A DNA stretch of 64,000 bases. Source: a virus. Taxonomy: Duplodnaviria > Heunggongvirae > Uroviricota > Caudoviricetes. The stretch lies in the IMG/VR virus record IMGVR_UViG_3300029571_000006; one strand, written 5' to 3'. The notes beneath the pieces were generated by a model. That model saw nothing but the letters and a program-made list of their open reading frames with translations. It was not told where the DNA came from and did no database searches. Each line of letters begins with the position of its first letter. Position 1 is the first letter of the stretch. This document shows, piece after piece, positions 15,264 to 59,017 of the stretch. A program made the translations under genes and the position numbers.

Positions 15264-15306
15264 TTGTTATCTCCTTTCAGTTTTATTGTGGGCTGTTACA
15301 CCCTAG

Positions 15307-19260: not shown

Positions 19261-20458
19261 TTAGCGCTGCAATCCAGCCAATGTCTTTACACACGCTGAA
19301 AATATCTCAGCAGCTTCCTCAACTTCAACCGGAGTATTCATTGACGAAAATGAGATTCTCACAGAATCCCTAGCCTCATCATCGGAAAGCCCCATAGATG
19401 TCAACACCCGACTTGGATCGGATTTATGACTGTGACAGGCGGAGCCAGCCGAAATACATACGCCCTTTGCGTCAAGCATAAGCAGCAGAGTCTCACTGTC
19501 AATATCCTCTATTCTTAGATTCAATGTCTTCCCAACATCTCCTACAGAAGCCCCATTCACATGTACTCTTTCATCAATGCCATACTCTTTAAGACCGGAT
19601 ATTACATTTTCATAAAACAATCTCTTGAGTAAAGAAACCGTGACCCTTTGAGCACCGAAGTCTGAACATATTATGTCACAAGCTTTTCCTAAGCCAACGA
19701 TACTTGCGACATTTTCAGTACCTCCACGGAGACCGAACTCTTGGTTTGACCCACCATATATCAGTGACCTCGCCATTGACTTATCCCTGACATATATCGC
19801 ACCGATTCCTTTTGGAGCATATATTTTATGACCCGAAATTGTAGCATAGTCACATCCTATTAAATTCGTATCAATCGCATGACACCCGGCAGCTTGTACG
19901 CAATCGGTATGAAATAAGATTCCACGCTCTTTACACATTTCCCCGATATGGTTGATTGGATTTACAGCCCCTGTTTCATTATTTACATACATCACAGATA
20001 CGAGACCAATGCTTTCATCTGTGTTAAGTAGTTCTTCTAAGTGCTTAACATCTATAGTTCCGTCCTGCTTTGTATGTATAAAGTGTGTATAAAAGTCGTC
20101 TTTTATATTCACTTTTCCTATTGGTGCGAACATATGTGTTGCAGCCTCGTACACAGAATCATGTTCAATCTGAGAAATTACCACATGTTTCTTGCCAGCC
20201 TTTTCAAGCATACATTTCATGCCATATGAAAACACCATATTGTTTCCTTCACTTCCTCCGGACGTAAACACAATCTGCTCCGGAGAAGCGTTAAATAACT
20301 GAGCAACCTGCTCTCTCGCTTTCTGTATTGCTTTTGCAGATTCCCGTCCAATTCTATAAACAGCCCCGGCATTCCCATATCCACCCTTTAAGTATGGCAT
20401 CATAGCATTAAGCACATCCGGGTGAATCGGAGTCGTTGCTGAGTTATCTAAGTATATC
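19261..20458 (-). CDS. Cysteine desulfurase (class V aminotransferase, NifS/IscS-like)
   Basis: PLP-enzyme pattern incl. SGHKIYAPKGIGAIYV (Lys in SGHK) and a C-terminal active-site Cys region. RBS AAGGAGG before MIYLDNSATTP. Confidence 0.7.
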
Positions 20459-20470
20459 ATAAATTCCTCC

Positions 20471-20941
20471 TTATAATACGGAAAGGTATCCATATTTATT
20501 TGTACTAACCTGCACGTAATCAATTACAGGAGCATCCACATGATTGTAAGACAACCTCCATACTTTAGATGTATCTATTGATCTGATATAACCAGCTCCG
20601 GCAAAACCACATCTAAAATCACAGCTTTCTCGTCCTCTGTACACACATTCTCCCCACAGCATAGTCAGGTTCTGCTGACAGAATTGAACAACTCGTGGGT
20701 CAAACATCAAATCAAAGTCATTTGGATAGTCTGGATTTTCATATCCAATACTTTTACAGAATTCGTTTAATTCATCCGGTGCAATGAACCATCTATCGAA
20801 TATGATGGCTATCTTTGTGGTATCATTGTCTGGAACTTCGCCCGTACCATTACATGCAGGACATTTTGTTATACCTCTGATTCCGGCACCAAGACTAATC
20901 ATTCCTTTTCCTTCACATTTCTTGCACTTCATATGTATCAC
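20471..20941 (-). CDS. Hypothetical protein with DnaJ-type CxxCxGxG zinc-finger repeats
   Basis: CKKCEGKG and CPACNGTGEV repeats. Confidence 0.35.
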   Translation of the reverse strand: MIHMKCKKCEGKGMISLGAGIRGITKCPACNGTGEVPDNDTTKIAIIFDRWFIAPDELNEFCKSIGYENPDYPNDFDLMFDPRVVQFCQQNLTMLWGECVYRGRESCDFRCGFAGAGYIRSIDTSKVWRLSYNHVDAPVIDYVQVSTNKYGYLSVL

Positions 20942-21292
20942 CTACTCATCAAACTCAATTTTTCCTAATTCGCCATAAGAAAAATCCTCATAATATTCTT
21001 TGAATGTTTCAATAACGTTCCAATCGTTCGTAACGGCTGTTTCAATAATTCCTTCTGGTTGATCTCCAAAGAAGAAATAATATGATGCACCACCAAACCA
21101 ATTCCCGAGACGCAGATATTTTCCTTTTTCTTCTTCAAACGATCTTATATATCTACAATCAATTCCTGTATGCTTAGCATAATACATTGCGTAATCATAC
21201 TGTTCTTTCGTTAAAACTCTACCTGTTGGGCGCAACTCTAAGAAAGCCCACACTTTTTCTTTTGCCTTATCTTTTGCTTCTGACCATTTCAT
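20942..21292 (-). CDS. Hypothetical protein
   Basis: 116-codon ORF. Confidence 0.3.
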   Translation of the reverse strand: MKWSEAKDKAKEKVWAFLELRPTGRVLTKEQYDYAMYYAKHTGIDCRYIRSFEEEKGKYLRLGNWFGGASYYFFFGDQPEGIIETAVTNDWNVIETFKEYYEDFSYGELGKIEFDE

Positions 21293-21294
21293 TG

Positions 21295-22134
21295 CTATAC
21301 CTCCAATAAAATAAGCTCATCGATATACAGTCTTCCTTCTCCCTTGAATATTGGGATCTCTTTGTCGATAACCCACGCATTCTCTGATTCACTAGAATCT
21401 CTTAATTCGCATGTTTCTGTCCTGTCTGCAGAAATACTCACGATACGACGATTCTTAACACAGCAACTTCCTCTCTTTTGATGGGAAGGTAAATCGTTCC
21501 AGTTGATTTCCTTTTGCGTCATCAACATATCCTGAATCTGATTACATGTTTTGTGCTGTAATTCTTTGTGACTAAAGTAAGCCTGTCCAAGCATCTGTAT
21601 AGAATTTCTACTCGCATCGAGCTGTCTCCAGTAGATATTGTTCGTTACTTCTTCCTTTGGAATATTAAAAACTCTGGCATCAAACATAGCACCTTTGTTA
21701 ATCGCTTTTGCGTAAATTCCAAACTGCTTCGTGATTTCGTCTCCCGAACCACTATTTGCATACTTAACAGCGTACCTCTTCATCTTGCGATTAAATTCAA
21801 GTGTTGCCATACTCGCTACAATACTGCACATTTTCTGTACTTTGTAATCGAACCATGCATCGGATTCAAGCCTCTTATAATCAGTTAAAACCAATGTAAT
21901 TTCATCTGATTGTGTATATCCAAGCACACAGCCTTGAATATTCTCACACAGATATTTCATCGTATCCTGCATAGCAGACATTAAAACTTCGTCAAATGGC
22001 TTTTGAAAACCTTTTGTAAATGTGTGAAACGCCCGACCATCAACTCTGATGATTACGGGCGTTCTTCTCATTAACATATTTTTTGACACTGCTTCATATT
22101 TCTTCATTCGTTTTGCAAGTGCTGATGTATCCAT
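21295..22134 (-). CDS. Thg1-like protein (tRNA-His guanylyltransferase family, 3'-5' nucleotide addition)
   Basis: VIIRVDGRAFHTFT and SDEITLVL match the Thg1/TLP family signature. RBS AAAGGAGG. Confidence 0.55.
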   Translation of the reverse strand: MDTSALAKRMKKYEAVSKNMLMRRTPVIIRVDGRAFHTFTKGFQKPFDEVLMSAMQDTMKYLCENIQGCVLGYTQSDEITLVLTDYKRLESDAWFDYKVQKMCSIVASMATLEFNRKMKRYAVKYANSGSGDEITKQFGIYAKAINKGAMFDARVFNIPKEEVTNNIYWRQLDASRNSIQMLGQAYFSHKELQHKTCNQIQDMLMTQKEINWNDLPSHQKRGSCCVKNRRIVSISADRTETCELRDSSESENAWVIDKEIPIFKGEGRLYIDELILLEV

Positions 22135-22155
22135 AATGTTCCTCCTTTTGAATTT

Positions 22156-23170
22156 TTAAATGTTTTCACATTTTATGCCTGAGATTCCCTGTATTCCATT
22201 AACTCGAACATATCTTTCACCTTCCCACCAGTCGTTAAGAAATTCTACATCGTACATATTGTATGGACTTGCGACTTCGTTTATACGTTCATAGTTCTTT
22301 CCATCCCGTGAAATTTCTATTGACACAATTACATCTTCCGTGCAATGACACTCCCAATATTTTTTGATATATTTAGATACAACATCATATCCTGTCTGCT
22401 TGTTATTCAGCACTTCCGTCTGTGGATTGACCGCATATTCAAACGATGGCATTAACTGGAGTTTGAATAGGTTCTTTTCATGCATAGAATCGATTCTTTC
22501 CTTTGTACGCTTGTCATCAATCTCTCCAGTTCTGATATATCTATCCAGAACATCATATGTAAAGCCAAGATTGTCCTCATCTGTATGACCGCACAGCCCA
22601 TCTGTAGGAACTTTGTCCACAAGTTCTGCTGGAAGATTAAGCTCTCTACCGAGAGCCTTAACTTCTGTGACTGTCAGTTTTGACAGAGGACTGAAATCAC
22701 CTGCTCCATCACCATATCTGGTTGCATATCCTACCCAGTCTTCTGAAAGATTACATGTATTTGCGACTCTGCCTCCGACCGTCTGAGAAACCGCATAGAG
22801 TGTTGCCATTCTAATTCTTGCCGGAAGATTTACAGATGTCTGTACAGACCAGTGGTCTCCGAGCTGCGGTTTAATTTCATGCTTTAATGCTCTAATTGCG
22901 CTATGAATATTGATTGTACAATACTCAATTCCAAGATGATTAACCAGTTTGTATGATGCGTCAATGTCAACCTGCTCACCATTTGGCATAAGCACACCGA
23001 ACACTCTGTCCTTACCAAGAGCCTCTACGCATAATGCAGCTACTACACTTGAATCTTTCCCACCAGAAATTCCAACCACAGCACAGCAATCATTACCGTT
23101 TTCGTTAAACCAATTTCTGATCCACTGAACCACTTCATTCTTTACTTCTTTAGCATCAAACTCACTCATG
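22156..23170 (-). CDS. nadE: NH3-dependent NAD+ synthetase NadE-like (PP-loop ATP pyrophosphatase) with C-terminal extension
   Basis: PP-loop VGISGGKDSSV, ARIRMATLY, GYATRYGDGAGDFSPLSKL...DGLCGHTDEDNLGFTY. Confidence 0.65.
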
Positions 23171-23569
23171 TTTAACATCTCCATTCTCAATCTTTTCTAT
23201 TAGTGTAAGTAATTCATTGTATATTTGGATCAATCCGCCTCTGTCATCAATATAAACATTTGCATATATTTTTCTACCAGAAAAAGCGACAGAAGAATCA
23301 CAATTAACCCCTTTGTACTTAATGTTATTGTCTTTGAGATATTGTTCAATCATTTCGTATTTGTCTTCGCCATTACCGGTAAATATAATCACCTCTGAAT
23401 ACTTCTCCCATCTATGCAAAAGACTGATAACATTTTCATACGTTCTTCCCTTTTTATGAAAGTCATAAATTGTATCATCAAAATCCACGCAGAAGATAAG
23501 CTTGCCGTATTTTTTAAATTCTTCTTCTAATCTATTGTATGAATTATTTGACTGAAGATAAAAATCCAT
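23162..23569 (-). CDS. HAD-superfamily phosphatase-like protein
   Basis: DxDxT motif (CVDFDDTIY). RBS GGAGGA before MDFYLQ. Confidence 0.4.
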   Translation of the reverse strand: MDFYLQSNNSYNRLEEEFKKYGKLIFCVDFDDTIYDFHKKGRTYENVISLLHRWEKYSEVIIFTGNGEDKYEMIEQYLKDNNIKYKGVNCDSSVAFSGRKIYANVYIDDRGGLIQIYNELLTLIEKIENGDVKHE

Positions 23570-23570
23570 A

Positions 23571-25031
23571 TTATTTTCCTCCATACATCCTTTCTCTAAT
23601 ATCCAGGAATGAGTCTTCTCTGACAAATGCTCCGTCTTTGAATACCGTTGTGAGTAAACTATCATCGCTCATTTCCATCAACTGATCTTGACATTTAAGC
23701 TGTCCATCTTCCTCGTAAACTCTGCAGCATCCCTTGTGTGATTTCTTCAAGTGACTTGTATCTGTTTTTGGATCTTTATAAATCATCACTTTTTCGCCAT
23801 TGATGATGCCATATGTTGCTTTCATTGCGATTCCAAATGTATCTCTTGTAGCCACAATGAGTTTTCCGTCCTCTGCAATCGCAGTAAAGCAGAAAGCACC
23901 AACGCCATATGCGATATTGTTCGCCGCAAACCCTCGTTTTTCTAACTCTCTCCAGATAGTATCTACATTTGATAATGTGCATCCATCTCCGTAGATAATA
24001 CCGATGTGTGGATCGAGCACTTTATACCCCTTACTGTTTGTGGTTCCTCCGAAAATCTCCCATAACTTTTCAACAGTTTTCACAGAAATATCCACAATGT
24101 CTCCGCTATCTGGTCTTACTAACAGCTTACCATGATGATTCATAATTTCTTCCTTGCATTGTGGAAGGATATTATTTATCATATTCCAGTAATCGTAGGT
24201 GTCGGATACCATACTAAATGATGTATTTGGATATAATTCAGTGAGTAATCTTTTGACAAAGGTAATTTCATCTCCATCTACAGAGAAGTTTGCACCCATA
24301 ACGCTATGCTCTGTCGATACAGCTCCAATGCCAATGCCTTCTTCTCTGCAATTTGCATTGTAATATTTGTCAATATAAGAAATTGCCGGAATCGTAGAAG
24401 TCTTATCGAATGATAAAAGCCATGATGCCGAGCATCTTACTGCCTCATCCATACAGGACATTCCTCGCATTCCAAAATCAGCGCAAGCAAGTTTACCACT
24501 CATTCCGTCTGTTGTATTATCGTACCAGTAGTCAGCAATATTTCGATACATATTACCAATCGTTGCATGACAGCATGGTTTCCAAAGTTCTACCTGTAAA
24601 ATACATTCAATCCACTGAACAAGCCATGCAAAGTCCTCATGTGTATTTGTGATTTCAATACATGGAATTCCCATTGTAACCATCGTTCCTTCTGGAAGCG
24701 CTCTGATTTCTAATGGTAAATATCCCAATCTGTGCAGTTGCACAATTTTATCAATATCATAATTACCATCGCCGATTTGAATATTCATTGTTTCTTTATA
24801 CTGACTTACCACATCTTCTTCCGTCTTACCAAAGAAATTATCATTGAAATATCCGATAAGATACTCTTTGATAAATGCCTGAAGACCAAAGAATACCATT
24901 TTATCCTGTTGCCTCAACATAGATCTTCTAGGAACCCAATATGACACGAGCTTCGTCAATCCTTTTGGATACATTCTGTCGTGACACTGTTTGTATGTAT
25001 CAGATAATAATAAAGCCATTACATCATTCAT
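23571..25031 (-). CDS. Nicotinamide phosphoribosyltransferase family protein (NAMPT/NadV-like; could be a Namat-type variant)
   Basis: N-terminal LLSDTYKQCH (NAMPT DSYK motif). 486 aa, type II PRTase pattern throughout. Confidence 0.75.
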   Translation of the reverse strand: MNDVMALLLSDTYKQCHDRMYPKGLTKLVSYWVPRRSMLRQQDKMVFFGLQAFIKEYLIGYFNDNFFGKTEEDVVSQYKETMNIQIGDGNYDIDKIVQLHRLGYLPLEIRALPEGTMVTMGIPCIEITNTHEDFAWLVQWIECILQVELWKPCCHATIGNMYRNIADYWYDNTTDGMSGKLACADFGMRGMSCMDEAVRCSASWLLSFDKTSTIPAISYIDKYYNANCREEGIGIGAVSTEHSVMGANFSVDGDEITFVKRLLTELYPNTSFSMVSDTYDYWNMINNILPQCKEEIMNHHGKLLVRPDSGDIVDISVKTVEKLWEIFGGTTNSKGYKVLDPHIGIIYGDGCTLSNVDTIWRELEKRGFAANNIAYGVGAFCFTAIAEDGKLIVATRDTFGIAMKATYGIINGEKVMIYKDPKTDTSHLKKSHKGCCRVYEEDGQLKCQDQLMEMSDDSLLTTVFKDGAFVREDSFLDIRERMYGGK

Positions 25032-29761: not shown

Positions 29762-30089
29762 TGGAGCTGAGGGGAGTCGAACCCCTGTCCAAAAATATTA
29801 CTCACTATGAATCTTTACGCTGTTTTGGAATCATGTACTGATTTCTATCCACCACTCTGTTCTTAACTGTCTCAACCAATACAGGTGTTCATTTACAGAG
29901 AACCGTATACAAATTATGCTTGTTTTTGAACCTCAGTATCTACCAGCAATATCTCAATACATTTTGGTGTAGCAACTTAGGCTACTGCTAACATCTGTCT
30001 GTTTGCGTTTGTGTTTAATAGTTGATGATTAAGTCATCACTCTAGCGAATTCATAACTTTCATACCCCTGTCGAAACCTTTACAGCCCC
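29762..30089 (-). ncRNA. ssrA: tmRNA (SsrA), phage-encoded
   Basis: 5' GGGGCTGTAAAGGTTTCGACAGGGG and 3' GGACAGGGGTTCGACTCCCCTCAGCTCCA match tmRNA tRNA-like ends. Acceptor GGGGCTG/CAGCTCC includes the G3-U identity pair. Tag-like reading frame ...GCAAACAGACAGATGTTAGCAGTAGCCTAA (…ANRQMLAVA*). Similar to the B. subtilis tmRNA ends. Confidence 0.75.
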
Positions 30090-40713: not shown

Positions 40714-42930
40714 CTATTCGTCTTTGAATTTCTTACCGGAGTCTGATTCGTAAAACATATCTCGCAATGTGCAGATATTTCTCGGAACACTATCTAAATC
40801 CTCTACATCATGAAGTGTTTTAACCCATGCGTAGAACTGATTTGCAAGAGGTGTTACCAATGCCGCTGTTCTTTTCGGGTCAATATATCCTTTCTTAATG
40901 GCTTCATGCGAAATTGATCTCATGAATTTCCAGAAATTGTAGTACGCCAGTTTCAGCTTAACCATGTATCCGTTTGAATCTTCAATAACGAATCCCTCGA
41001 TGCGTCTTCCGTCATACTTGTAATCTTCATCCATTACCATATTGTACCAATCAAAGAAGTCCTGCCATGTTTCAATCTCATATCCCAATTCTTTATGAGG
41101 AATGTTGAGAGATTCAGCAACAGTACACATCTCCTCAAAACTAAGCTTCTGGAATTTCATATCATTTGATACGATATCCAGCAGAAATACTCTGCTCTCC
41201 GGATACTTAATAATGTGAGGGTCTCTTTCCATGTCTACATTTTCAAATACAAATGATACGTCATGCTCTTTACAATAAGCATTGATCTTATCAAGAGTAT
41301 CGTCACCAAGCTGTGTATGAAGTGCTTCAGCAAACCATTCAGCATATGACCCTTCCGGATTTGACTTAGTAGTCACAAACAGTTTTCCTGTTTCTGGATT
41401 ATTGGATACGATTCCAAGATATCCATTCTCCTTGACGTATGCCCTCACAGGGAATGCCAACTTATCCTGCAGCTTGTCTAATTCTGTCTCTGGTCTTTCG
41501 TTGATGTTAAAGAACTTATCATAAGCTCTGGCAACAATTTTCTGTTTTGGAATATCGATGTATAATCCTCTTGCCTTTGTTGTCTGCTCGTCCCAGATTT
41601 TGTCATAAAACGCTGTTTTGGTGAAGTTAAATGATGAGATATCTCCATACTGCTTTTCCTTGATGTACTTATTTCTTCTAAGCTCAAGAATCCACTCTCC
41701 GACGGAATCCGCACCAGCAGACACCTCTTCCGGTTCTCTAAATACTGTATTCTTTACCTCTACCGTATTGAAAGTACCGTCGTTATCGAGGATAACAGCT
41801 CTCAGGCTTCCACCAAACTCAACTCTTCCTTCAAGATTGAAGGCATGATTGTTGACTTTTACCGGAAGTCCTTTTGTATTTCTATGACCATGAATCTGAT
41901 AACAATTTTCATCCATCTTATCCTCGAATGTTGCATCTACCTGCTCAGCATCGTTGTATCTTCCAACACCCTTAATCATCTGACTGGTAGATACCATTGT
42001 GAGATTATCTGGAATCATACTTAACCCAGCATGTGTGGCAAGGACTGTCTTACCTCTGAATTCGTAATAAGCGCACTGACCCATCCGTCTGTAAAGCTTC
42101 CTGATTGACTTCTTATCAATACCGGCTGCTTCGATTTCTGCTTTTGTATGGAATTCAAACTCTTTAGATGCCGTCACTTTATCATGCGCCCAGTCCCATA
42201 ACCACCGCTCATGATTACCCTCAAGAAGCAGCACATTCGGCTTATCATATGTTGAAAGCAAGAATTTCAAGACATCAGCGTTTTCAATTCCTCGATCTGT
42301 GTAATCACCACAGAAGATGTAGAATTCATCATCTTTAAAACCGCCATTCGCTTCAAAATATGTATTCAATGCTGTATTACATCCATGAATATCTCCAATA
42401 TGATGGATACGTTTGTACTGATCCAGATTGAATTTCTTCATAAACACAGCGTTTAACTCATCTGGCTGAATAACCTTAATGCCTGACGGAATTTTCTGTG
42501 TCTCGAACCTTGCATACATCTTATCGATTACTTCTTCCGGCACTCTTTTCAGTTCCTGTCGTCCTCGATTTCTTTCCTTTGTTACCTCGATTGGAACAGT
42601 CGTCATATCAACGCAGTAGATTCGGTATCTGTACTCATCGCACATCTTCTTATATCTATTCATTTCAGATGTTTTAGAGTTAGTAGCATCAATCACAGTA
42701 AACTCGCCATTCTTCATTCTTGTCTCCAAGATATTGAACAGTGTTTTCCACACAATATTATCATTTGCCTGACTGATTGCGTGTGTTCCGTCCGGCATCA
42801 TCTGCGGACTTGAGCACATCATTCTAATATTATCTGCTGATAATGCATACTGTTTTAATCCGTTCTGCTCAATCCATGTGGATTTCCCACATCCTGCGCT
42901 TCCTCTTAATAACAGTAAAACTCTCATGTT
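40714..42930 (-). CDS. Pnkp-like RNA repair enzyme: polynucleotide 5'-kinase + metallophosphoesterase (3'-phosphatase) + nucleotidyltransferase/ligase domain
   Basis: P-loop LLLRGSAGCGKST, phosphoesterase GDIHGC...GDYTDRG...GNHE, ligase motif I KENGYLGIV. RBS GAGAGGTG before MRVLLLL. Confidence 0.6.
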   Translation of the reverse strand, partial: NMRVLLLLRGSAGCGKSTWIEQNGLKQYALSADNIRMMCSSPQMMPDGTHAISQANDNIVWKTLFNILETRMKNGEFTVIDATNSKTSEMNRYKKMCDEYRYRIYCVDMTTVPIEVTKERNRGRQELKRVPEEVIDKMYARFETQKIPSGIKVIQPDELNAVFMKKFNLDQYKRIHHIGDIHGCNTALNTYFEANGGFKDDEFYIFCGDYTDRGIENADVLKFLLSTYDKPNVLLLEGNHERWLWDWAHDKVTASKEFEFHTKAEIEAAGIDKKSIRKLYRRMGQCAYYEFRGKTVLATHAGLSMIPDNLTMVSTSQMIKGVGRYNDAEQVDATFEDKMDENCYQIHGHRNTKGLPVKVNNHAFNLEGRVEFGGSLRAVILDNDGTFNTVEVKNTVFREPEEVSAGADSVGEWILELRRNKYIKEKQYGDISSFNFTKTAFYDKIWDEQTTKARGLYIDIPKQKIVARAYDKFFNINERPETELDKLQDKLAFPVRAYVKENGYLGIVSNNPETGKLFVTTKSNPEGSYAEWFAEALHTQLGDDTLDKINAYCKEHDVSFVFENVDMERDPHIIKYPESRVFLLDIVSNDMKFQKLSFEEMCTVAESLNIPHKELGYEIETWQDFFDWYNMVMDEDYKYDGRRIEGFVIEDSNGYMVKLKLAYYNFWKFMRSISHEAIKKGYIDPKRTAALVTPLANQFYAWVKTLHDVEDLDSVPRNICTLRDMFYESDSGKKFKDE

Positions 42931-43336
42931 TTCACCTCTCATATATTTCTTAGTTGGTTGCATAAGTAACTCCACTCCAGACCTCACTCATTGCCTTTAC
43001 GCATGACGATATTGCAACCACAATAATGCCTCAAGTGCATTACCGATAGTCTTTTCAGTATACTTATAGGAGCAGGGGTGTTAGTGTTTCCCGTCTCAGT
43101 CTACCAAGGTATTTACGAAGCCAGAAAAGGAATAATCGCTCCGTCCGTTGAGGCTACGCCTTACGCATCGCTGAAAAGCTCATCGTTTCGCTTCGATGGT
43201 GCAACTTCCACCTAACCTCTATTTCTTTTACGCCCAAATATATAAACAAATATATGCCAACCACAACATACTTGTTTATATATCCACCTTGGAACCCGAC
43301 CGCTACTCACAGCCGTGATATGTTATCTCAACCGGG

Positions 43337-43731: not shown

Positions 43732-43946
43732 TTCATAACACTTCCTTTCCTGTTTAAACTGTAATCTAAAGTACGGTAGCCCGTGTAATCACGCCCAGTA
43801 GATCTTTGATCTTCAGGTTCCTCCTCTTATGGAGGTATTGATTATCAGTGGGTTATGTATATCCTGAAATTATTTCTGGGTTTACGGCGTGCTCAGCATC
43901 TCGTGCTGCCGCGTCTTCCAGCTGCTTGGTGACGGTTATTTTCCTC

Positions 43947-44003
43947 ATCAAGTTGTCACTTCCGCCGACGGCAAGAAGCACTGCAAAGCAGTAATATCAT
44001 TAC
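43947..44003. repeat. Conserved structured element copy A (34-nt box ATCAAGTTGTCACTTCCGCCGACGGCAAGAAGCA + covarying hairpin + TAATATCATTAC)
   Basis: Identical or near-identical box at 51142, 51402 and 53277. Hairpin sequence differs but the stem is preserved. Confidence 0.6.
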
Positions 44004-44006
44004 GGT

Positions 44007-44306
44007 TTAAAACATAATATCTTCTTTCGTGACTTGATCTTTGGACTTCTTATTTGAGTATTCTACCCATGAAATCCATTTGTGATTTTCCGTGACATCT
44101 CCAGTCACATCGTATACTTTCCCTCCAATTCTTGTTCCGAAACAATTATTTTTTGGATCATACATGATTGCTGCGTTGTTCCGAATAAATCTTCTGAATA
44201 AAATAGAAGCAAACCAGTAGCTGTTTCGACCAGAAAATGATTCAATCACGCCATGATTTGCTCCTCCAGAGGTAATCCGATATATAAATTTCATTGCATC
44301 ATTCAT
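44007..44306 (-). CDS. Hypothetical protein
   Basis: 99-codon ORF. Confidence 0.4.
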   Translation of the reverse strand: MNDAMKFIYRITSGGANHGVIESFSGRNSYWFASILFRRFIRNNAAIMYDPKNNCFGTRIGGKVYDVTGDVTENHKWISWVEYSNKKSKDQVTKEDIMF

Positions 44307-50902: not shown

Positions 50903-51141
50903 ATTCTTCCTCCTTAAATTTGTTTAAATGTACAATCTAATATGTATAGATGAGCTTATCCAGGATCTAATTTATGTATGCCGGTGCTGCGATGATTTGG
51001 ATTTCAAGAGTCCTTGATTCTATGTTTCATTGAATTTCAATTAGTTATCCTGTTGACAGTTTGTATTTGTTATGTTATGAGGTTCCTGATGAGTTTGTAC
51101 TCAGCTCCTCCTCTGGCGCTCTCGGGTAGGTTCTCTGCCCT

Positions 51142-51200
51142 ATCAAGTTGTCACTTCCGCCGACGGCAAGAAGCATATCCAATGGATATAATTTCATTGT
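51142..51200. repeat. Conserved structured element copy B
   Basis: Box identical to copy A over 34 nt. Hairpin TATCCA-A-TGGATA, then TAATTTCATTGT. Confidence 0.6.
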
Positions 51201-51401
51201 ACATTTATGATTTGCTATGCAATCTAGTGCATGTTTACCTGTATATCGCTTCCTGAAAGTTCTTTCTGGAGCTAACTTTCTGGATTTGATTCTGGTATAA
51301 GTTCCTGATTATCAATATTGCTTTTTCTTGAGTCTTCAGTTCCTGGATGGTGATCCGGAAGGAGGCACCCGTCGTCTGCAGGATGGTATGTTTCTTTCCT
51401 G

Positions 51402-51460
51402 ATCGAGTTGTTACTTTCGCTGACAGCAAAAAGCACTGTAAAACAGTAATTTCATTGCAT
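51402..51460. repeat. Conserved structured element copy C (diverged, with compensatory changes)
   Basis: ATCGAGTTGTTACTTTCGCTGACAGCAAAAAGCA: the internal palindrome GCCG-A-CGGC becomes GCTG-A-CAGC. Hairpin CTGT-AAA-ACAG, then TAATTTCATTGCAT. Confidence 0.6.
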
Positions 51461-51477
51461 AGCTTATTATTTGTCAC

Positions 51478-51917: not shown

Positions 51918-53057
51918 CTAAGCTGTGAGGTCTTCTTTAATTGATTTCACGATATCCACACCAAATTTCTCGCTGAGATGTTTAACGATTCCGTCAATCT
52001 TTTCTCCCTCAACCATCCGGTAATAGTTTCTATACCCGTCCATCGTTTGAATATCACTTTTATCCCAGGCGATTCCATTCTTTCTATCCATAGCATACGA
52101 TGAAAGCATTGCCTGGAATTGTCTTTTCTTTTTGTGACCTATCGTGATTTCATTATCTTTGTTGAGCATCAATCCAAGATTCCAGTTCTGACCCGCTGAC
52201 GATCCATATCTCGTCTTCTCTTTCTTGATTGTAAACGGCGCTCCGAAATCATTCAGTATTGATACGATTACATTCTGGATTTCCATAAAGCTAAACCCAT
52301 ATTTAGATGAAATCTGGAAATCATCAGCATATCTTGTATATACAAACCTCTGGTGATTGTATTCTCTGAGTGTTCTTGCAACTTCAAAATCAACCGGAAT
52401 CATCATAATGTTTGTAATGGTTGGAGACAACGGAGTTCCCTGTGGAAGTCCCCCATCCAAGAATCCAAGCTCAAGAGCCTTTGCAAGTGCTTCTTTTCCT
52501 TTGTCATCTTTCATTACTTCCGAGAATGGGAACACCATCGAAAACATATGCAGCACCCATTCCATTGTTGTGCTTCCAAAGAAATTGGATAAGTCTAACT
52601 TCTCAAACCACTTACTTTCATTCGCCTGATGCCTTTTCAAAAGATCTAACGTACTTCTACCTTGTATATATGCGAATGCTGATGTGTGATAAAGCGCTTT
52701 GAAATCAACCTCAAATATATTTTTCAGAGTGCGTAATGCTTCTTTGAGTTCCGGTTCCGGAGCGTCAATCTTTCTAAGTCCGCCACTCTTTTTCGGAATA
52801 TGGAACTCATAGTACCATTCATGCCGTGGCTTCTCTCTTAAATATTCTGTTCTTTCGTTGAACCATTCGAGTTTTGCAATAAGCTTGTCAATATCAACAA
52901 GCTGAAGAAATCGATCACTAACTTCTTCAACCTCATACGTCCTTGTATTCGTTAAATTTGCATTTATTAACTGTGCGCCAGAACCAGATCCAAATAGGAA
53001 CTCTTCCAGAGTCATCTGGTGGTATGATGGTGGCTGTTTTACTGTTATGTAATACAT
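51918..53057 (-). CDS. Retron-type reverse transcriptase
   Basis: YYEFHIPKKSGGLRKIDAPEPELKEALRTL (retron RT motif 1/2 with LK), SAFAY...GRS, DLSNFF, GLPQGTPLSPTITNIMM, YTRYADDFQISS, KEKT...NLGLML. Aligns motif-by-motif with retron Ec86 RT. ATG after RBS AAAGGAG (the track start is a TTG). Confidence 0.7.
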   Translation of the reverse strand: MYYITVKQPPSYHQMTLEEFLFGSGSGAQLINANLTNTRTYEVEEVSDRFLQLVDIDKLIAKLEWFNERTEYLREKPRHEWYYEFHIPKKSGGLRKIDAPEPELKEALRTLKNIFEVDFKALYHTSAFAYIQGRSTLDLLKRHQANESKWFEKLDLSNFFGSTTMEWVLHMFSMVFPFSEVMKDDKGKEALAKALELGFLDGGLPQGTPLSPTITNIMMIPVDFEVARTLREYNHQRFVYTRYADDFQISSKYGFSFMEIQNVIVSILNDFGAPFTIKKEKTRYGSSAGQNWNLGLMLNKDNEITIGHKKKRQFQAMLSSYAMDRKNGIAWDKSDIQTMDGYRNYYRMVEGEKIDGIVKHLSEKFGVDIVKSIKEDLTA

Positions 53058-53276
53058 ATTTTCTCCTTTCAAGAACTGCAATCTAATGTATGTCTTAGTT
53101 GTATCCGTGCTGCATGATCCTGATCTTGATCATGTCTCTGCTTGGTATAATCCATTGATTATCATGTACTTATGACCTATCTGTTCCGGGATTCATCCTC
53201 TTCGGAACCTTTGCTGGAATTTCATGAAACTCTCGCATCCTCCGTTGCCTTCTATCCCGGCGGGGTTGCATTCCCT

Positions 53277-53337
53277 ATCAAGTTGCTACTTCCGCCAACG
53301 GCTGAAAGCTATCTCAAAGAGATAAATATCATTGCAT
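53277..53337. repeat. Conserved structured element copy D, inside the 300-bp ORF-free leader of the RT gene
   Basis: ATCAAGTTGCTACTTCCGCCAACGGCTGAAAGC + hairpin TATCTC-AAA-GAGATA + AATATCATTGCAT. Confidence 0.6.
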
Positions 53338-53343
53338 GTTCTT

Positions 53344-53370
53344 TATAAAAACCGCCACGCAACGTGGCGG
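53344..53370 (-). terminator. Rho-independent terminator ending the E1/JAB operon, upstream of the RT leader
   Basis: Minus-strand stem CCGCCACG-TTG-CGTGGCGG followed by TTTTT. Confidence 0.55.
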
Positions 53371-53384
53371 TTCATTCACTTCTA

Positions 53385-53582
53385 CTACACATTCTTGCTA
53401 ATCTTATCGACATATGCTTGGAAGCTACGAATCAGTTCTGTATCTTCTATATAAAATGGATCAGAGTTATACTCGTCGTGAAAGAAGTTATACATTAGCT
53501 GACCGAATCTCATGTCTGGTACTCTTTTCCACGCAGTCGATAAAATTTCGCAGAATAGGTCGATTCTTTGCTTATCCCTCAT
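53385..53582 (-). CDS. Hypothetical small protein (last gene of the operon)
   Basis: 65-codon ORF, 3-bp spacing to the upstream gene. Confidence 0.35.
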   Translation of the reverse strand: MRDKQRIDLFCEILSTAWKRVPDMRFGQLMYNFFHDEYNSDPFYIEDTELIRSFQAYVDKISKNV

Positions 53583-53584
53583 GG

Positions 53585-54256
53585 CTAAAACGCCAACAGG
53601 TCAAATTTGAACCCGTCCATAATAATCATTTTCTTGATTCCATCGCCTTTTACGAAATTGATGTAGTTGTTCACACCGAGAGCTGAAATCAATCTTACTG
53701 TTGTCGCTACACCAAGTGTAACACCACAAGCGGATATTGGTGTCTCATCCTTAGCTTCATCATGTGAGAACTGCATCGAGTTCAATAAATCTTCCTTCAT
53801 TTTGGAATCAGACCAGTCAGCTGCATAATGCTGCGCACTTTCAAGCAATGTTCGGAAATCAAATACCGCTTTTACATATGGACTGTCAAAATGTTTTTCA
53901 ACAATCTCTCTTCTCAGTTCAATGCTGTCTACACACAGGAAGATATATCCCGACATCAGCTTTCCCTGCCATCCTTCCGGTTTGATTTCAATCTGATCAG
54001 AAATTTCTGGATTGATATCTGTCAGAATATCTTTTAATGCTTCGACCTTGAGTTTACCAACATCGTTCTGGTCGAACATCTGATTTACAATGTTATGTGG
54101 TTCAACTTTATCGAAATCCCATAAAGTCATCTTTGTTACACCACATCTTGCAAGGTTCTCTGCTACTGTAGAACCGACAGATCCACATCCTACAATGTGG
54201 ATTCTTGCCTGATCTTTTTCTGGCTGGAAAAATTCATAACTCTTACTTAAATCCAT
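53585..54256 (-). CDS. E1-like (ThiF/MoeB/HesA-family) adenylyltransferase domain protein
   Basis: Rossmann motif IVGCGSVGSTVAENLARCGV followed by LWDFDKVEPHNIVNQ (E1 nucleotide-binding signature). RBS GTAGGAGGA. Confidence 0.6.
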   Translation of the reverse strand: MDLSKSYEFFQPEKDQARIHIVGCGSVGSTVAENLARCGVTKMTLWDFDKVEPHNIVNQMFDQNDVGKLKVEALKDILTDINPEISDQIEIKPEGWQGKLMSGYIFLCVDSIELRREIVEKHFDSPYVKAVFDFRTLLESAQHYAADWSDSKMKEDLLNSMQFSHDEAKDETPISACGVTLGVATTVRLISALGVNNYINFVKGDGIKKMIIMDGFKFDLLAF

Positions 54257-54265
54257 AATATCCTC

Positions 54266-54745
54266 CTACACGTTGTAAATTCCTCTGCTTCCGTTTTGTG
54301 GTACAGTAAATAACTCTGCGATAGACATTTCTTCATTTCCCACTTCATATCTATCGTCTGGATCTTCTTCTACGAATGGCTCCGGCTCTTCTTCGTCATC
54401 GTAGTCTTCTTCATCTTCATCGCAATCGTCAAATACTTCCTCATAATCAGCCCACTCAAGCACCTCATCCTTTAAATCATCAAAATCACTTTCGTCTGCT
54501 TCTGAAAAATCTCCATCATCATCTCTAATATAATAAGATGCTCCTGTCGGAATATCTTCCAAGGATTCTAAAAGATCACTCCAATCACTTGCATCTCTCG
54601 CCATATCGACAAGCCGCTCGTTAAAATAGTCATCTAATTCATCCTGTGAATATACTTCGCTACAAACCGAACACTCATAGTCGTAGCAGAAGCTTCTCAA
54701 TTCACTCCATGTTGTCACATTCTGAATGAATTCATCTCTGGTCAT
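54266..54745 (-). CDS. Highly acidic hypothetical protein with N-terminal CxxC pair
   Basis: 159 codons, D/E-rich (DDCDEDEEDYDDEEEPEP). Confidence 0.4.
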   Translation of the reverse strand: MTRDEFIQNVTTWSELRSFCYDYECSVCSEVYSQDELDDYFNERLVDMARDASDWSDLLESLEDIPTGASYYIRDDDGDFSEADESDFDDLKDEVLEWADYEEVFDDCDEDEEDYDDEEEPEPFVEEDPDDRYEVGNEEMSIAELFTVPQNGSRGIYNV

Positions 54746-54761
54746 TTATCTCATCTCCTTA

Positions 54762-55715
54762 TTATTCAAATCCGTATTTCTGTCTCCAATACTCATCCTG
54801 GAATTCACTGTATCCACCGTATACATCATCGTCGTCATCTAAATAGCCAGGGTATCCGTAATCTGACATGCTCATCTGTTTACAAGAAGATTTATTTCCT
54901 TTCTTACGTTTCCCCTTGCGCTTCTTGCCGCTTTTATTTCCCTGCACAAGGGGACTGGTTTTTCCCAGGCTAGAGTTCTCCTTTTTCGGTTCTTCCTTTT
55001 TCTGCGCTGAATATCCGCCGTAGCTTGGATATCCAGGATAAGAGTTTCCATAAGTTCTAGCCCCAGTGCCGTAATTGTATGTTTTTGTAACAACCAGTTC
55101 TTTTGCTTCCTCAAGGAATCCTGTCAAATCTCCGACTTCTTTGACGGCGACTGTAACATCTGCCGTTTCAAAAAGAATGTTCTCTCTCAGATCATATAAT
55201 TTTACTGTTTTCTCCCCTCGCTTGTTGTATATCATAAAGATATAAAACATATCGCTGTCCAGCTGGCTAAGAATTCCATCATAAAGATTCAAATCCACAC
55301 TTGATGGACTTGTTGACATATTTACATGCGAATGTCCCTGCATTCTAATGTTGTTGAATACGTCATCTTCCTGCTTCATCAACCACATCTCATACTCATT
55401 CTGATCTGTTGTTACGGTTGAACCTGTAACTTCCTGCGGATAAACCAATATATCCGAAATCAGATATGTATCTTTTTCTTCGCATCGTTCTGCAACACCA
55501 TGCCATGCAACTTCTTTATCAAATTCTCTAATAAGAGTCTGCATTTTCTGCCATGCCATTTCAGTAAAAAGGACTGTTGCTTTTCTATCAACAGTCCCTA
55601 ATGTCTTTGTGAAATTTATTTTTCCATCAGAAAACTTTCCAGTACGAAGAGTTTCATAAAATTCCTGTGTGTACTGGTTAAGGATTTCCTGTGGTAATGT
55701 TATCATTTTACTCAT
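54762..55715 (-). CDS. JAB/MPN+ (JAMM) metalloprotease-domain protein with Gly/Tyr/Lys-rich low-complexity C-terminus
   Basis: Upstream Glu (AWHGVAERCEE) plus GHSHVNMSTSPSSVD = E...HxH-x7-S-x2-D JAMM motif. RBS AAGGAG before MSKMITL. Confidence 0.6.
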   Translation of the reverse strand: MSKMITLPQEILNQYTQEFYETLRTGKFSDGKINFTKTLGTVDRKATVLFTEMAWQKMQTLIREFDKEVAWHGVAERCEEKDTYLISDILVYPQEVTGSTVTTDQNEYEMWLMKQEDDVFNNIRMQGHSHVNMSTSPSSVDLNLYDGILSQLDSDMFYIFMIYNKRGEKTVKLYDLRENILFETADVTVAVKEVGDLTGFLEEAKELVVTKTYNYGTGARTYGNSYPGYPSYGGYSAQKKEEPKKENSSLGKTSPLVQGNKSGKKRKGKRKKGNKSSCKQMSMSDYGYPGYLDDDDDVYGGYSEFQDEYWRQKYGFE

Positions 55716-55727
55716 ATTTCGCACTCC

Positions 55728-57317
55728 TTAGAATAAATCGTCTTCTTCAAGGAAATCATCCTCTGTTTCAGTTTCTTCTGTATCTACTGCTTCTGCACCT
55801 GTCTCTTCATCTGTTACAGTATCTGCGTTAGCAGTTGTCTCAGTTGATTCGGTCTGCTCAGATTCCTTAGCCTGCTCTGCCGCTTCCTGTTCTTTCATCC
55901 ACTTGATAGCCCCTCGCATATCAACGATGCTGCCATCTGGAAGCTCGATACATTTGTTATGTCTGTATCCATTTCTTCCACACATGCGTTCCATAAATAC
56001 TTCCATAACTGTACTGTCAGCAAAATTCAAGCTCTTACATGATGAGATACACTGCTCGATGGCTCCGATCGCATCATTATCAGCCAGTCTCTCATTCATC
56101 GTTCTTTCGTAATTTCCAAGACAGCTGTATCTGTCAATATGCGGGTTTGGAATATATGTTTCGTAGCTCTCGTTGTAATTATAATTCCGTAAGCCCTCCA
56201 CTCTTTCTCCAAGCCTGATACGGTATGCGCAGCAGAATCTTAATTTCAATACCTGGTCGATGAAGATCGCATACATCAGCTTCTCGACATCATCCTTTTC
56301 CATAGAATCTCCGATGTATCTATAGATATAGCTTCTTCTGTTATCTATAACTGTCTTTGCCATATCCTCATCAAAGTACATCAGATAATCTTTAACAACA
56401 AAAGTCATCTCTGATCCTCTGACACACTCAAGATCCAGTTTCTGATTGCACAGGAAGTATTCCATGATTTCGGAATCCTCTCCTTCCATCTGAGCAATCT
56501 TTGTCTTGAGACCTAGCAGTCTAATCTCAGCATCTCTCTTCCTGTTCAATGCGGTTGAGATACTATTGTTATATCCTCTAATCTGGTCTACGTAATCGCT
56601 GATATTTTCCTGTACAATCCTAACCTGTTGTTCTTCGTATGCGGTTTCAAACCCTTTCAACTGCTGTCTGATAAACATTCCTCTGAAATCATATCCAGAA
56701 GCAATCTTTGAAATTGCATTCATATACCGCTCTGGAGTTGTTTCTCTCAGAGACTGGATCAATTCCATTTCATCTTCCGTTACTCCAGCCTCCGGGTTAA
56801 AATACCAAGGTAAGAATGCAAATATTGAACACTGTAAATAGTGCATTCTACGAATATTGAGATTATCTACAAATATGACAACCTTTTTATTTGTAGGATT
56901 TACATAACACAAAGCATAAAAAGTTTTCTTGAAAAACTCTGTTACTTTGACAATTCGTTCATAACGAGAATTGTTTGTTGTGAACGCTTTTTCAATCAAT
57001 CTCAGACATGCAAGATTTCCCTGTGCATTTCCAGACAGATTATGAATGACGATAGACCCATCTTCATATTGTCTTGAATTATACATAGCGTCAAGAACAG
57101 CTCCATCCGGATTCCTTTCTACAGTTTCTTTATCGAATGATGTACCTCTAAAATACAAGGACACCGATTCCCCGTCTGAAATTCTTGGACTTACTAATGC
57201 TCTTAATGTTGAGATAAATGTAACATCATGGTTGAAGTTTTCTCCTCTGATATTCGCAAAGTATGTATTTGCTGTCTGTGTGACCAATGGTGTGGTTGTA
57301 ATAGTTGGTCTAAACAT
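55728..57317 (-). CDS. Hypothetical large protein (529 aa), first gene of the E1/JAB operon
   Basis: No family I can name. Acidic C-terminal tail. Contains NPHIDRYSCLGN, reminiscent of but not matching the UBC HPN...C motif. Confidence 0.4.
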   Translation of the reverse strand: MFRPTITTTPLVTQTANTYFANIRGENFNHDVTFISTLRALVSPRISDGESVSLYFRGTSFDKETVERNPDGAVLDAMYNSRQYEDGSIVIHNLSGNAQGNLACLRLIEKAFTTNNSRYERIVKVTEFFKKTFYALCYVNPTNKKVVIFVDNLNIRRMHYLQCSIFAFLPWYFNPEAGVTEDEMELIQSLRETTPERYMNAISKIASGYDFRGMFIRQQLKGFETAYEEQQVRIVQENISDYVDQIRGYNNSISTALNRKRDAEIRLLGLKTKIAQMEGEDSEIMEYFLCNQKLDLECVRGSEMTFVVKDYLMYFDEDMAKTVIDNRRSYIYRYIGDSMEKDDVEKLMYAIFIDQVLKLRFCCAYRIRLGERVEGLRNYNYNESYETYIPNPHIDRYSCLGNYERTMNERLADNDAIGAIEQCISSCKSLNFADSTVMEVFMERMCGRNGYRHNKCIELPDGSIVDMRGAIKWMKEQEAAEQAKESEQTESTETTANADTVTDEETGAEAVDTEETETEDDFLEEDDLF

Positions 57318-57344: not shown

Positions 57345-57418
57345 TGGATCGTATCCGACTCGAACGGATGACCGGTCGGTTATGAGCCGACTGCTCTAAC
57401 CCACTGAGCTAACGATCC
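57345..57418 (-). tRNA. tRNA-Met (anticodon CAU; could also be initiator or lysidine-Ile type)
   Basis: GGATCGT-TA-GCTC-AGTGGGTTA-GAGC-A-GTCGG-CTCATAA-CCGAC-CGGTC-ATCCG-TTCGAGT-CGGAT-ACGATCC-A. Clean cloverleaf. Confidence 0.75.
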
Positions 57419-57552: not shown

Positions 57553-58203
57553 TTAACGCACCTCATTCCCTATTTTGTTTTCCTTGCAGAAATTACTAAC
57601 CGCATACTTTGCAAGCTTGTCTACCATTTCGTTGTACTTTTCACCTGTATGAGCAGCTACTTTTTGAAACGATATTGCGATCTCATCCTGCCATTCCTTC
57701 ATTGACGTTGAGTATTTTAATGTCAAATCGTTATTTGCTTTCCATGCTCCGATAGCCCACATTTCAATACCGCTATAGTCATAGCAAATATTTACAGATT
57801 TACATCCGCTTCTGATTGCATATCTTACAGCACTCATAGCTGCGAGCATTTCCCCCGCAACATTCCTCAGCAACACACATTCCGGATTGTTTCCTGCCCC
57901 ATAATACTGTTCAATCGAACCGTCCTTTTTAATTACAACACAGCCGTATCCGTAAACATTTGTTGCCACATCAAAGCTTCCATCTACATAAATGGTAATG
58001 TCCGCCTCCTTGCTCTTATCGCTCTCTATGACAGGTTCGACATTTCCACTCAAGTAAATCTCAGCCTCTTTGCGGGTTGAGAATCCTTTGTATAAAGCGC
58101 CACTGAAGCCTTCAACCTGCGCCTTGCACTCATCCCATGTTTTATATATCCCTGGATTCTTTCCTTGTTTCACCGCATAAAAGTTGTTTTTCTTCTTTGC
58201 CAT
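57553..58203 (-). CDS. rnhA: Ribonuclease H1 with N-terminal hybrid-binding domain
   Basis: N-terminal FYAVKQGKNPGIYKTWDECKAQVEGFSGALYKGFSTRKEAEIYL (HBD). RNase H core ITIYVDGS...GYGCVV...E...D. Confidence 0.7.
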   Translation of the reverse strand: MAKKKNNFYAVKQGKNPGIYKTWDECKAQVEGFSGALYKGFSTRKEAEIYLSGNVEPVIESDKSKEADITIYVDGSFDVATNVYGYGCVVIKKDGSIEQYYGAGNNPECVLLRNVAGEMLAAMSAVRYAIRSGCKSVNICYDYSGIEMWAIGAWKANNDLTLKYSTSMKEWQDEIAISFQKVAAHTGEKYNEMVDKLAKYAVSNFCKENKIGNEVR

Positions 58204-58248: not shown

Positions 58249-58305
58249 CCCCGGAAGCCGAGCATGAGTAAGCATACCGACGATAGTTCGTCGGCTTGAG
58301 TTATT
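58249..58305. repeat. 57-bp duplicated element, copy 1 (hairpin-containing; starts inside the stop codon of gene 58305..58532)
   Basis: cccggaagccgagcatgagtaagcataccgacgatagttcgtcggcttgagttattt, identical at 59088-59144. Contains the CCGACGA/TCGTCGG stem. An extra hairpin + T-tract (58225-58254) follows on the minus strand. Confidence 0.6.
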
Positions 58306-58532
58306 TACGCATTGTCAGCTTTTACTACATTCAGCAGGAAGCATTTGTCTTTGATTCCCATCTCCTCGAATGATTTGTCCATATCACCAGGCTGCAGTGT
58401 AGAACCATCCAGATGCATTGTTCCTCTTGTGTAGTCAATGTCGTTTTCCTCAAGAACTGATCTCAGTGTTACTGCCTCATCTACGATTACGCTATTTCTT
58501 TTTACGTTGTTTCCTACTGTAACTTTAATCAT
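58305..58532 (-). CDS. Small protein with possible beta-grasp/ubiquitin-like fold
   Basis: MIKVTVGNNVKRNSVIVDEAVTLRSVLEEN...HLDGSTLQPGDMDKSFEEMGIKDKCFLLNVV follows the ubiquitin-like hydrophobic pattern but has no C-terminal Gly-Gly. Confidence 0.3.
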   Translation of the reverse strand: MIKVTVGNNVKRNSVIVDEAVTLRSVLEENDIDYTRGTMHLDGSTLQPGDMDKSFEEMGIKDKCFLLNVVKADNA

Positions 58533-58627: not shown

Positions 58628-59017
58628 TTAGGCAACTGTGATGCCATCCATGATAGCTGTTCTTTCCTTGTCAATAGAATCGATAACAGCCGGGATAGTT
58701 TTTTCCAGTTTTCCAAGGTTTGTCAGAGCTGCGCCCAGTTCATCAGCGATGAATCCTTTAATGTCATCTCCGTCATAGTTTGTTGTCATTGTGATGGTAG
58801 CCAGCTTCTCATCATCACGGGTTGCCTCGCCGAAGCTTGCTCCGTATGTATTGATCTTTCCAGCTCCTGTGCCAATTCTGAAGATTTCCTCTTTACCATC
58901 TTCGCCACCTTTAAGAACCAGTGCTTCCGGACGATACTTCTCAATCTTCTTGATGTCATCAAGTTTTACCTCAGATACTACTACGATTGCCTGTCCCATT
59001 GTTTTTACTTTTGCCAT
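58628..59017 (-). CDS. Hypothetical protein with strong RBS (likely abundant)
   Basis: RBS AAAAAAGGAGATAAG. 129 codons. Confidence 0.4.
   Translation of the reverse strand: MAKVKTMGQAIVVVSEVKLDDIKKIEKYRPEALVLKGGEDGKEEIFRIGTGAGKINTYGASFGEATRDDEKLATITMTTNYDGDDIKGFIADELGAALTNLGKLEKTIPAVIDSIDKERTAIMDGITVA

Follow-up and report, generated by a model that had tools for sequence, protein, structure and literature searches.

We report here that a 64,000-nucleotide stretch of tailed-phage DNA (Caudoviricetes; IMG/VR record IMGVR_UViG_3300029571_000006; hereafter the window) encodes what is best explained as a virus-borne, Bil-like conjugation system, in which a ubiquitin-like protein (Ubl), a large protein with an E2-like domain, a JAB/JAMM metalloprotease and a minimal ThiF-type E1 most likely act together with the complex of a neighboring retron-type reverse transcriptase (RT) and its multicopy single-stranded DNA (msDNA). 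We consider this account as a whole probable, if well short of certain: the assignment of the Ubl-E2-JAB-E1 components, which draws on gene anatomy and conservation, is well supported, while the chemistry, the roles of individual cysteines and the target of conjugation are aspects that we infer. What the data show are which genes are present, in what order and how far they are conserved, the catalytic residues of the E1 and of the JAMM protease, an E2-like fold and a Ubl C-terminus that is conserved and in places extended or fused. A sequence-only reading of the same DNA had proposed a tight five-gene operon at 53385-57317 as either a ubiquitin-like conjugation or a sulfur-carrier module. Conjugation is supported by the Ubl that we identify, by the E2-like domain and by an invariant JAB motif, whereas a sulfur-carrier function is not supported. 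That reading had also raised the possibility of a non-conjugating ThiF protein lacking any Ubl or E2 partner; instead, a Ubl candidate and an E2-like domain are both found in the same block as the E1.

The extent of the system is apparent from its conservation in related phages. Thirty-nine loci anchored on the 529-residue protein with the E2-like domain (p529) were examined, comprising metagenomic contigs, IMG/VR contigs and one GenBank fecal phage contig, and all 39 feature the order p129 - 75-aa open reading frame (ORF) - p529 - JAB - ThiF - RT, down to p529 identities of 24-27%. A search anchored on the RT reached >574 viral contigs, of which 80 were fetched and 68 provide at least 6 kb of upstream sequence: the p529, JAB and ThiF genes are present in 68/68, and p129 and the 75-aa ORF accompany them, in the same order, in 66/68. 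As for the two exceptions, p529 is partial and neither p129 nor the Ubl was detected in L082, and a 6-kb insertion shifts both genes beyond the fetched stretch in L132. The RT follows ThiF in every locus examined, with insertions of 1-6 kb between ThiF and RT in some. In L001 and L003 (11994-15926), an insertion of several Bro-N/ORF6C (antirepressor-like) genes parts the gene for an acidic protein from ThiF, such that the operon is split and ThiF still adjoins the noncoding RNA (ncRNA) and the RT. Functional coupling of the conjugation module to the retron is plausible because neither is seen without the other from either anchor and because ThiF keeps its place by the ncRNA-RT unit where the operon is interrupted by insertions.

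The five ORFs of the original proposal are all present at their noted positions on the minus strand, with intergenic gaps of 12, 16, 9 and 2 nt that bear out their tight spacing, and the terminator placed at the end of the cluster corresponds to a GC-rich hairpin with a T-run (ccgccacg-ttg-cgtggcgg-tttttt, ~53347-53372) 3' of the 65-aa ORF. The boundary of that five-gene operon was nonetheless wrong, in that it included two genes that relatives can lack, left out p129 and the Ubl, and overlooked the adjoining downstream RT of retron type with its ncRNAs. The 65-aa ORF (53385..53582) is confined to the closest relatives and missing from L060, L062 and L063, which are near-identical; since it is also absent from L008, which is otherwise ~100% identical, we treat it as an optional indel outside the system. 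The gene for the acidic protein (159 aa; 54266..54745) moves or is absent in relatives: among the RT-anchored loci it lies after JAB in 16 and after the RT in at least 31, in some loci kilobases beyond the RT, and was not seen in 19. It is best described as a frequent but movable accessory, whose product combines a conserved ~100-aa N-terminal domain (with Cys19/Cys24 and Trp54 in the alignment) with an acidic tail. Within the window phage and its close relatives, a gene for RNase H1 with a hybrid-binding domain (57553..58203; Cauli_VI 2.7e-21, RNase_H 6e-11) and a tRNA-Met (CAT) gene (57345..57418; Rfam tRNA 67 bits, also called by ARAGORN) separate the Ubl gene from that of p529; the position of the RNase H gene varies among loci (downstream of the RT in L004/L005), and it is probably not a core part of the system.

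Most of these proteins are invisible to family libraries. Queried singly, the 529-aa, JAB, acidic, 65-aa, 75-aa and 129-aa proteins gave no match in Pfam, NCBIfam, PHROGs or PADLOC, in agreement with the earlier failure to name a family for p529 and the acidic protein, and the E1 is the only member of the five-ORF cluster that sequence libraries recognize. Likewise, none of 855 word-indexed p529 homologs carries a Pfam domain. An exhaustive profile search with p529 returned 2,301 clusters at 50% identity; the 150 matches listed are all full-length members of the family, and no distant relative in another context is among them.

The 75-aa ORF (58305..58532), already described from the letters as beta-grasp-like, matches a beta-grasp protein in size and in its pattern of secondary structure. 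It had been placed 4 kb away from the operon, a distance that holds from the E1 only, as the ORF lies ~1 kb upstream of the p529 gene. When 20 members were scanned singly against Pfam, weak matches were obtained to DUF2604 (6 members), ThiS (one homolog, 4.6e-4), Cobl-Ubl and TUG-UBL1, nine of them in Ubl-like families and none significant alone; similarly, SAMP2, PF1061 and two Ras-association chains are among eight weak matches of the Ubl profile to Protein Data Bank (PDB) sequences, again none significant alone. Identification of this ORF as the cognate Ubl of the module is supported because it lies immediately upstream of the p529 gene in relatives and because its weak matches are to Ubl-like families. 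The sequence-only reading had remarked that no obvious Gly-Gly Ubl lies within the operon; the 75-aa protein has no Gly-Gly terminus either, its conserved ending being Asn-Ala (...VVKADNA). The protein ends in ...ADNA in 94/120 homologs, 92 of which fit K-x-x-N-A while two have R/N for Lys, and 1-8 variable extra residues follow ...ADNA in 24/120. A sublineage represented by L001 (7149-7370; also L002, L003 and L014) has a Ubl that stops at ...VVKAD before TGA, without Asn-Ala, for which a sequencing variant, recoding or processing by another rule could be responsible.

The Ubl has an obligate partner in p129 (129 aa; 58628..59017). In all complete loci the p129 gene is the next one upstream of the Ubl gene, and in four loci (L137/L138, L140 and L146) p129 is fused in frame behind the Ubl (L137 3708-4343; L140 3986-4681; L146 4060-4677), in an order that is the reverse of the usual gene order. 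The junction, ...KADNA|A(Y/K/V)IK(I/V)(A/V)G, coincides with the start of free-standing p129 (MAKI...), and in the L137 and L140 fusions it contains no start codon. Given this position at the Ubl C-terminus and p129 start, and the missing junction start codon in L137 and L140, a cut after Ala74 is therefore required. The fusion thus implies behavior resembling that of ubiquitin precursors and ties p129 to the system. No Pfam relatives of p129 were found and its profile gave nothing meaningful against PDB sequences; its one occurrence in GenBank phages is in MT835544.1, the sole record also carrying the module.

Whether the 529-aa protein (55728..57317) contains an E2-like fold was a question left by the sequence-only reading, and our analysis indicates that such a domain is present. 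Residues 1-220 form an N-terminal alpha/beta domain, residues 223-277 a long coiled-coil helix and residues ~283-450 the E2/UBC-like domain, behind which the protein ends in an acidic tail. The E2-like domain displays the elements of the UBC superfold (alpha-beta4-alpha3, the loop that joins strand 4 to helix 2 carrying the catalytic Cys), with H393 and C399 invariant and P390 and N391 near-invariant. The p529 profile gave nothing meaningful against PDB sequences, and its alignment by hhalign to E. aridi BilB showed no similarity.

The JAB gene (54762..55715) begins, according to homolog alignments, at ATG 55715, the start chosen originally, in preference to the upstream GTG 55724. The predicted JAMM motif is borne out as E68...H128-S-H130-x7-S138-x2-D141, which is invariant in 23 homologs together with P137, so that the catalytic motif is intact at sequence level; a JAB domain lacking catalytic geometry had been raised as a possible objection. 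Pfam Prok-JAB is matched weakly by 5/23 members (best E 0.0083), and the JAB profile gave nothing meaningful against PDB sequences. The N-terminal ~210 aa form the protease and are followed by a low-complexity tail that is first Lys-rich and then Asp/Tyr-rich; within this tail (54762-55100) a conserved Lys/Arg-rich patch, KGKRKK, precedes an Asp/Tyr/Gly-rich stretch, DDxDDPYGxxGY, a composition that suggests nucleic-acid or partner binding.

The E1 (223 aa; 53585..54256) is the most conserved gene of the block, at 65-97% identity where p529 shows 33-74%. Its earlier assignment as a ThiF/E1 Rossmann protein is solid (Pfam ThiF 1.9e-24): GCGSVG, D46, D48, N54, K69, D109 and R114 are invariant in 21 homologs, the Arg of the usual N-x-x-R-Q motif is replaced by an invariant Asn, and an invariant Cys176 occupies the position of the ThiF/MoeB crossover-loop Cys. 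The protein comprises a single adenylation domain, with ThiF spanning residues 16-206. Its best NCBIfam matches are to ThiF and to the 6A-MBL Cap2 E1 region, all below curated cut-offs, and its PADLOC matches are to CBASS E1-E2 models. A PRTRC cassette was considered and rejected, as TIGR03736 reaches 30 bits where its cut-off demands 145 and the remaining PRTRC models give no match.

Immediately beyond the module lies the RT gene (51918..53057; 379 aa from ATG 53057; RVT_1 2.9e-20), whose product retains a YADD motif and finds its best library matches in retron models, namely NCBIfam retron_St85_RT (4.9e-50; 170 bits, cut-off 235) and PADLOC RT_II-A (9.4e-47). Between the ThiF side and the RT we find a first retron-type ncRNA (53071..53343; covariance model 87.9 bits; fold z -4.2), laid out as a1 (53343-53331), a G (53330), two conserved msr hairpins, a variable msd and a2 (53082-53071), which is complementary to a1 and is followed by a ribosome-binding site and the RT start. 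The G directly after a1 is invariant in a 10-sequence alignment. The two hairpins and the a1/a2 helix are also predicted by RNAalifold, and 9/22 pairs show compensatory changes. A covariance model of the conserved 5' part has 103 matches in 47 sources, at 2-5 per phage, and four in the window (53271-53341, 51396-51464, 51136-51206 and 43941-44009). These define, beside ncRNA 1, a second unit at 51214..51463 (59.2 bits and fold; 10-bp a1/a2 helix), a third at 50926..51206 (63.9 bits; 11-bp helix) and a fourth at 43756..44008, ~8 kb downstream of the RT (62.9 bits and fold); each of the window ncRNAs has its own a1/a2 helix of 9-12 bp, in a unit of 250-281 nt. Across 90 distinct copies, 99.1% of cells hold standard pairs and 14/15 pairs are changed on both sides, the pairing being somewhat inflated by fitting of the alignment to the covariance model; 0/500 shuffles reach the observed level of covariation and slid registers pair only 36-51%. 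Furthermore, a perfect 8-nt a2 is found within 120-500 nt of 51/75 copies versus 5/75 for shuffled a1, and in the most divergent locus a weak covariance match falls exactly in the ThiF-RT gap. These features point to a retron-type RT with several template RNAs, a single enzyme apparently serving four templates in the window. An Rfam E-value scan of 50-61 kb returned tRNA only and no msr family, and a search for complementarity between the msd and the rest of the window turned up the shared msr alone. A near-palindromic motif, TGATAATCAA, recurs with variants in the variable msd parts (e.g. ~53170-53150; also in L009, L011 and L024), where it could act as an RT stop or a protein-binding site.

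These data are compatible with a working model for the phage-encoded cascade. The 75-aa beta-grasp-like protein would serve as the tag, and JAB would cut after its conserved C-terminal Ala74, thereby freeing it of short extensions or of the p129 that is fused to it in some relatives; the same protease probably also reverses conjugates. The ThiF-type E1 would then adenylate the exposed Ala carboxylate, possibly via the invariant Cys176, and the tag would pass to the invariant Cys399 in the E2-like domain of p529, whose N-terminal domain and coiled coil may choose the target and dimerize the enzyme. The module would act with the RT-msDNA complex either as its effector or regulator, or with RT-msDNA as target or platform. 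Only tentatively do we go further and envisage the Ubl cascade and the multi-template retron as one machine, that is, a virus-encoded retron type with a complete Ubl-E2-JAB-E1 system as its 'effector', in which conjugation would be controlled by RT-msDNA complexes or directed at them; in the extreme case the Ubl might be attached to the RT or the msDNA itself, with the several ncRNAs supplying distinct msDNAs.

As all loci belong to one lineage, inherited gene order is a real alternative, albeit one that we find doubtful, and under it the Ubl module and the retron would be functionally independent neighbors, the Ubl tagging host or phage proteins (for instance in counter-defense, or in virion or replication control) and the retron doing something else. 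Several observations weigh against coupling and fit this explanation. Every locus comes from one deep lineage of gut phages, whose genomes are collinear and 60-140 kb in size, and the link to the retron is one of conserved synteny within that lineage only; ThiF/p65 and the ncRNA have a terminator-like hairpin between them; ThiF and RT are separated by the 1-6 kb insertions in some loci; the additional ncRNA copies are remote from the Ubl genes; and in other phages ThiF or RT genes are found unaccompanied by the partner module. On the other hand, no locus with enough sequence carries one module alone, whether p529- or RT-anchored, ThiF adjoins the ncRNA-RT unit even where Bro-N genes part it from its operon, and the lone GenBank record, a 35-kb contig, keeps the arrangement with its p529 at 24% identity.

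The closeness of the RT to the defense retrons type II-A and St85, together with the fact that Bil and CBASS Cap2/Cap3 are themselves defense systems, might instead suggest prophage-borne anti-phage defense, i.e. a new retron type with a Ubl cascade as effector that protects the lysogen rather than serving the phage cycle. The SPbeta-like look of the phages (YonO-type RNA polymerase and YonV in relatives), an integrase-like match in the window and the size of some contigs (240-360 kb, possibly integrated prophages) would agree with it. We consider it improbable, as defense cargo is usually patchy, yet this block is found in every relative examined across very deep divergence and sits among replication and nucleic-acid genes, and PADLOC recognizes the RT and E1 only. 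Least probable by far is a sulfur-carrier system, in which the E1 would adenylate the beta-grasp protein for conversion to a thiocarboxylate used in tRNA, DNA or cofactor thiolation, with JAB maturing the carrier and a phage cysteine desulfurase providing the sulfur. Such a role would suit an E1 that is a minimal ThiF/MoeB-type domain with ThiF as its best named matches, and the match of one Ubl homolog to Pfam ThiS. The phage moreover encodes several tRNA-related genes and a class-V aminotransferase of cysteine-desulfurase type (19261-20523; Aminotran_5 1e-69), the latter already named as a cysteine desulfurase in the sequence-only reading. However, the desulfurase lies 33 kb away, the Ubl ends in Asn-Ala rather than Gly-Gly, the module has an obligate E2-like component that bears an invariant Cys, fusion of the Ubl to p129 recalls ubiquitin precursors rather than ThiS or MoaD, and the conserved block contains no rhodanese domain and no ThiG/MoaE/TtuA-type acceptor.

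Relatives of the window phage are found in metagenome-assembled genomes whose bins are for the most part Clostridia (Ruminococcus, Oscillospiraceae and Lachnospiraceae), and one Ubl homolog is annotated from Ruminococcus sp. AF12-5. In L060-L063 (1-2400), a YonO-type single-chain RNA polymerase (PF05183) and YonV are encoded ~8-10 kb upstream on the opposite strand, outside the window, which points to SPbeta-like phages. The module is present in 1/50,697 GenBank phage records, MT835544.1, an unannotated fecal contig, and megablast and tblastn searches of GenBank phages and plasmids revealed no plasmid with the module. ThiF-type E1 genes also occur in the crAss-like phage cr128_1 (L041, 4531-6657) and in Xanthomonas jumbo phages, with one locus in Xanthomonas phage PhiXhv-12 (L040, 3280-7530), and in the crAss-like phage an adjacent 'metalloprotease' gene matches the JAB profile at the catalytic motif (E 0.0056); these genes belong to different systems, separate phage E1-JAB modules without p529, Ubl, p129 or RT, as do other phage RTs, which lack p529, Ubl and p129.

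The window itself is a segment of a large phage genome in which every gene lies on the minus strand, with genes for DNA polymerase, DnaB-type helicase, DNA ligase, RNA ligase/polynucleotide kinase, NAMPT and a nucleotidyltransferase. It also contains a tmRNA gene (29762-30089; ARAGORN tag peptide ANRQMLAVA*), a tRNA-Gln gene (15306-15378) and a 757-aa kinase/phosphatase/RNA-ligase fusion of tRNA-repair type (40714-42987; phrog_8238, 4e-226). An unusual metabolic and tRNA gene cluster at 19261-25031 combines the class-V aminotransferase with a Thg1-like 3'-5' polymerase (21295-22134), NAD synthase (22156-23190) and NAMPT (23571-25031), and could have a role in NAD regeneration or tRNA repair.

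Demonstrations of prokaryotic ubiquitin-like conjugation have to date come from anti-phage systems of bacteria (Bil and CBASS Cap2); here the viruses appear to carry a complete cascade of their own. Gut metagenomes contain this lineage in abundance, its E2-like protein by itself accounting for ~2,300 clusters at 50% identity without a Pfam family, and its system departs from known ones in its minimal E1, Asn-Ala tag terminus, E2 domain within a large protein and precursor-style Ubl fusion. If the pairing with the retron is functional, it would link reverse-transcribed DNA to protein tagging, and retrons would gain a function within viruses instead of one directed against them.

In comparison with described retrons, the phage element, whose RT has its best library matches among retron models, shares an ncRNA immediately upstream of the RT, a1/a2 inverted repeats, the G after a1, conserved msr hairpins and a variable msd. 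It differs in that its RT remains at 170 bits against the model cut-off of 235, in having 2-5 ncRNA units per genome, some of them kilobases from the RT, and in being carried as a conserved block by a virus lineage. ThiF, ubiquitin and JAB do not occur in the text of the 13-type retron classification (Mestre 2020), and a literature search found no prior description of a retron paired with ThiF/JAB/ubiquitin genes or of a phage-encoded multi-template arrangement. Relative to type II CBASS Cap2/Cap3, the phage E1 and E2 are separate proteins, and what is predicted to be conjugated is a free-standing Ubl rather than the C-terminus of an enzyme; only the phage E1 region matches Cap2 models, and the block is without CD-NTase or effector. 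Family scans of the block genes and precomputed Pfam labels of flanking genes in seven loci contain no CD-NTase or fused E1-E2. With ThiF/MoeB-ThiS/MoaD pairs, and with the dual systems TtuB/TtuC and SAMP/UbaA, the phage module has in common a minimal single-domain E1, a crossover-loop Cys and a small beta-grasp-like partner, but it is without Gly-Gly and sulfur-acceptor enzymes and has an E2-like protein. Eukaryotic ubiquitin is translated fused, either to a ribosomal protein or as polyubiquitin, and is released by cleavage at its C-terminal residue. The Ubl fusions in four phage loci likewise call for release at the Ubl C-terminal residue, with the difference that the partner is p129, the protease a JAMM enzyme and the cleavage site after Asn-Ala.

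The closest parallel is BilABCD, for which an operon order Ubl-E2-DUB-E1 is described in the Bil papers, along with a deubiquitinase (DUB) that pre-processes a Ubl bearing up to nine residues past its reactive glycine, and a multidomain E1 with inactive and active adenylation domains and a mobile CYS domain. The order Ubl-p529(E2-like)-JAB-ThiF is found in all complete phage loci (with RNase H and tRNA-Met after the Ubl in the window), and the phage Ubl likewise has a conserved terminus and a variable tail. In contrast, the phage E1 is a 223-aa single adenylation domain without the inactive adenylation or CYS domains, the Ubl ends in Asn-Ala and not Gly, and the E2 domain is embedded in a 529-aa protein that also contains a coiled coil and an additional N-terminal domain, and it shows no sequence similarity to BilB; the phage block additionally includes p129 as an obligate, sometimes Ubl-fused partner and an adjoining retron, and its genes are on phage contigs rather than in a bacterial defense island. 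The comparison with Bil and CBASS called for by the sequence-only reading therefore yields a Bil-like gene order without three features of Bil, namely a multidomain E1, a terminal Gly and detectable BilB homology, and the phage system is accordingly better regarded as Bil-like in its working than filed as a Bil system.

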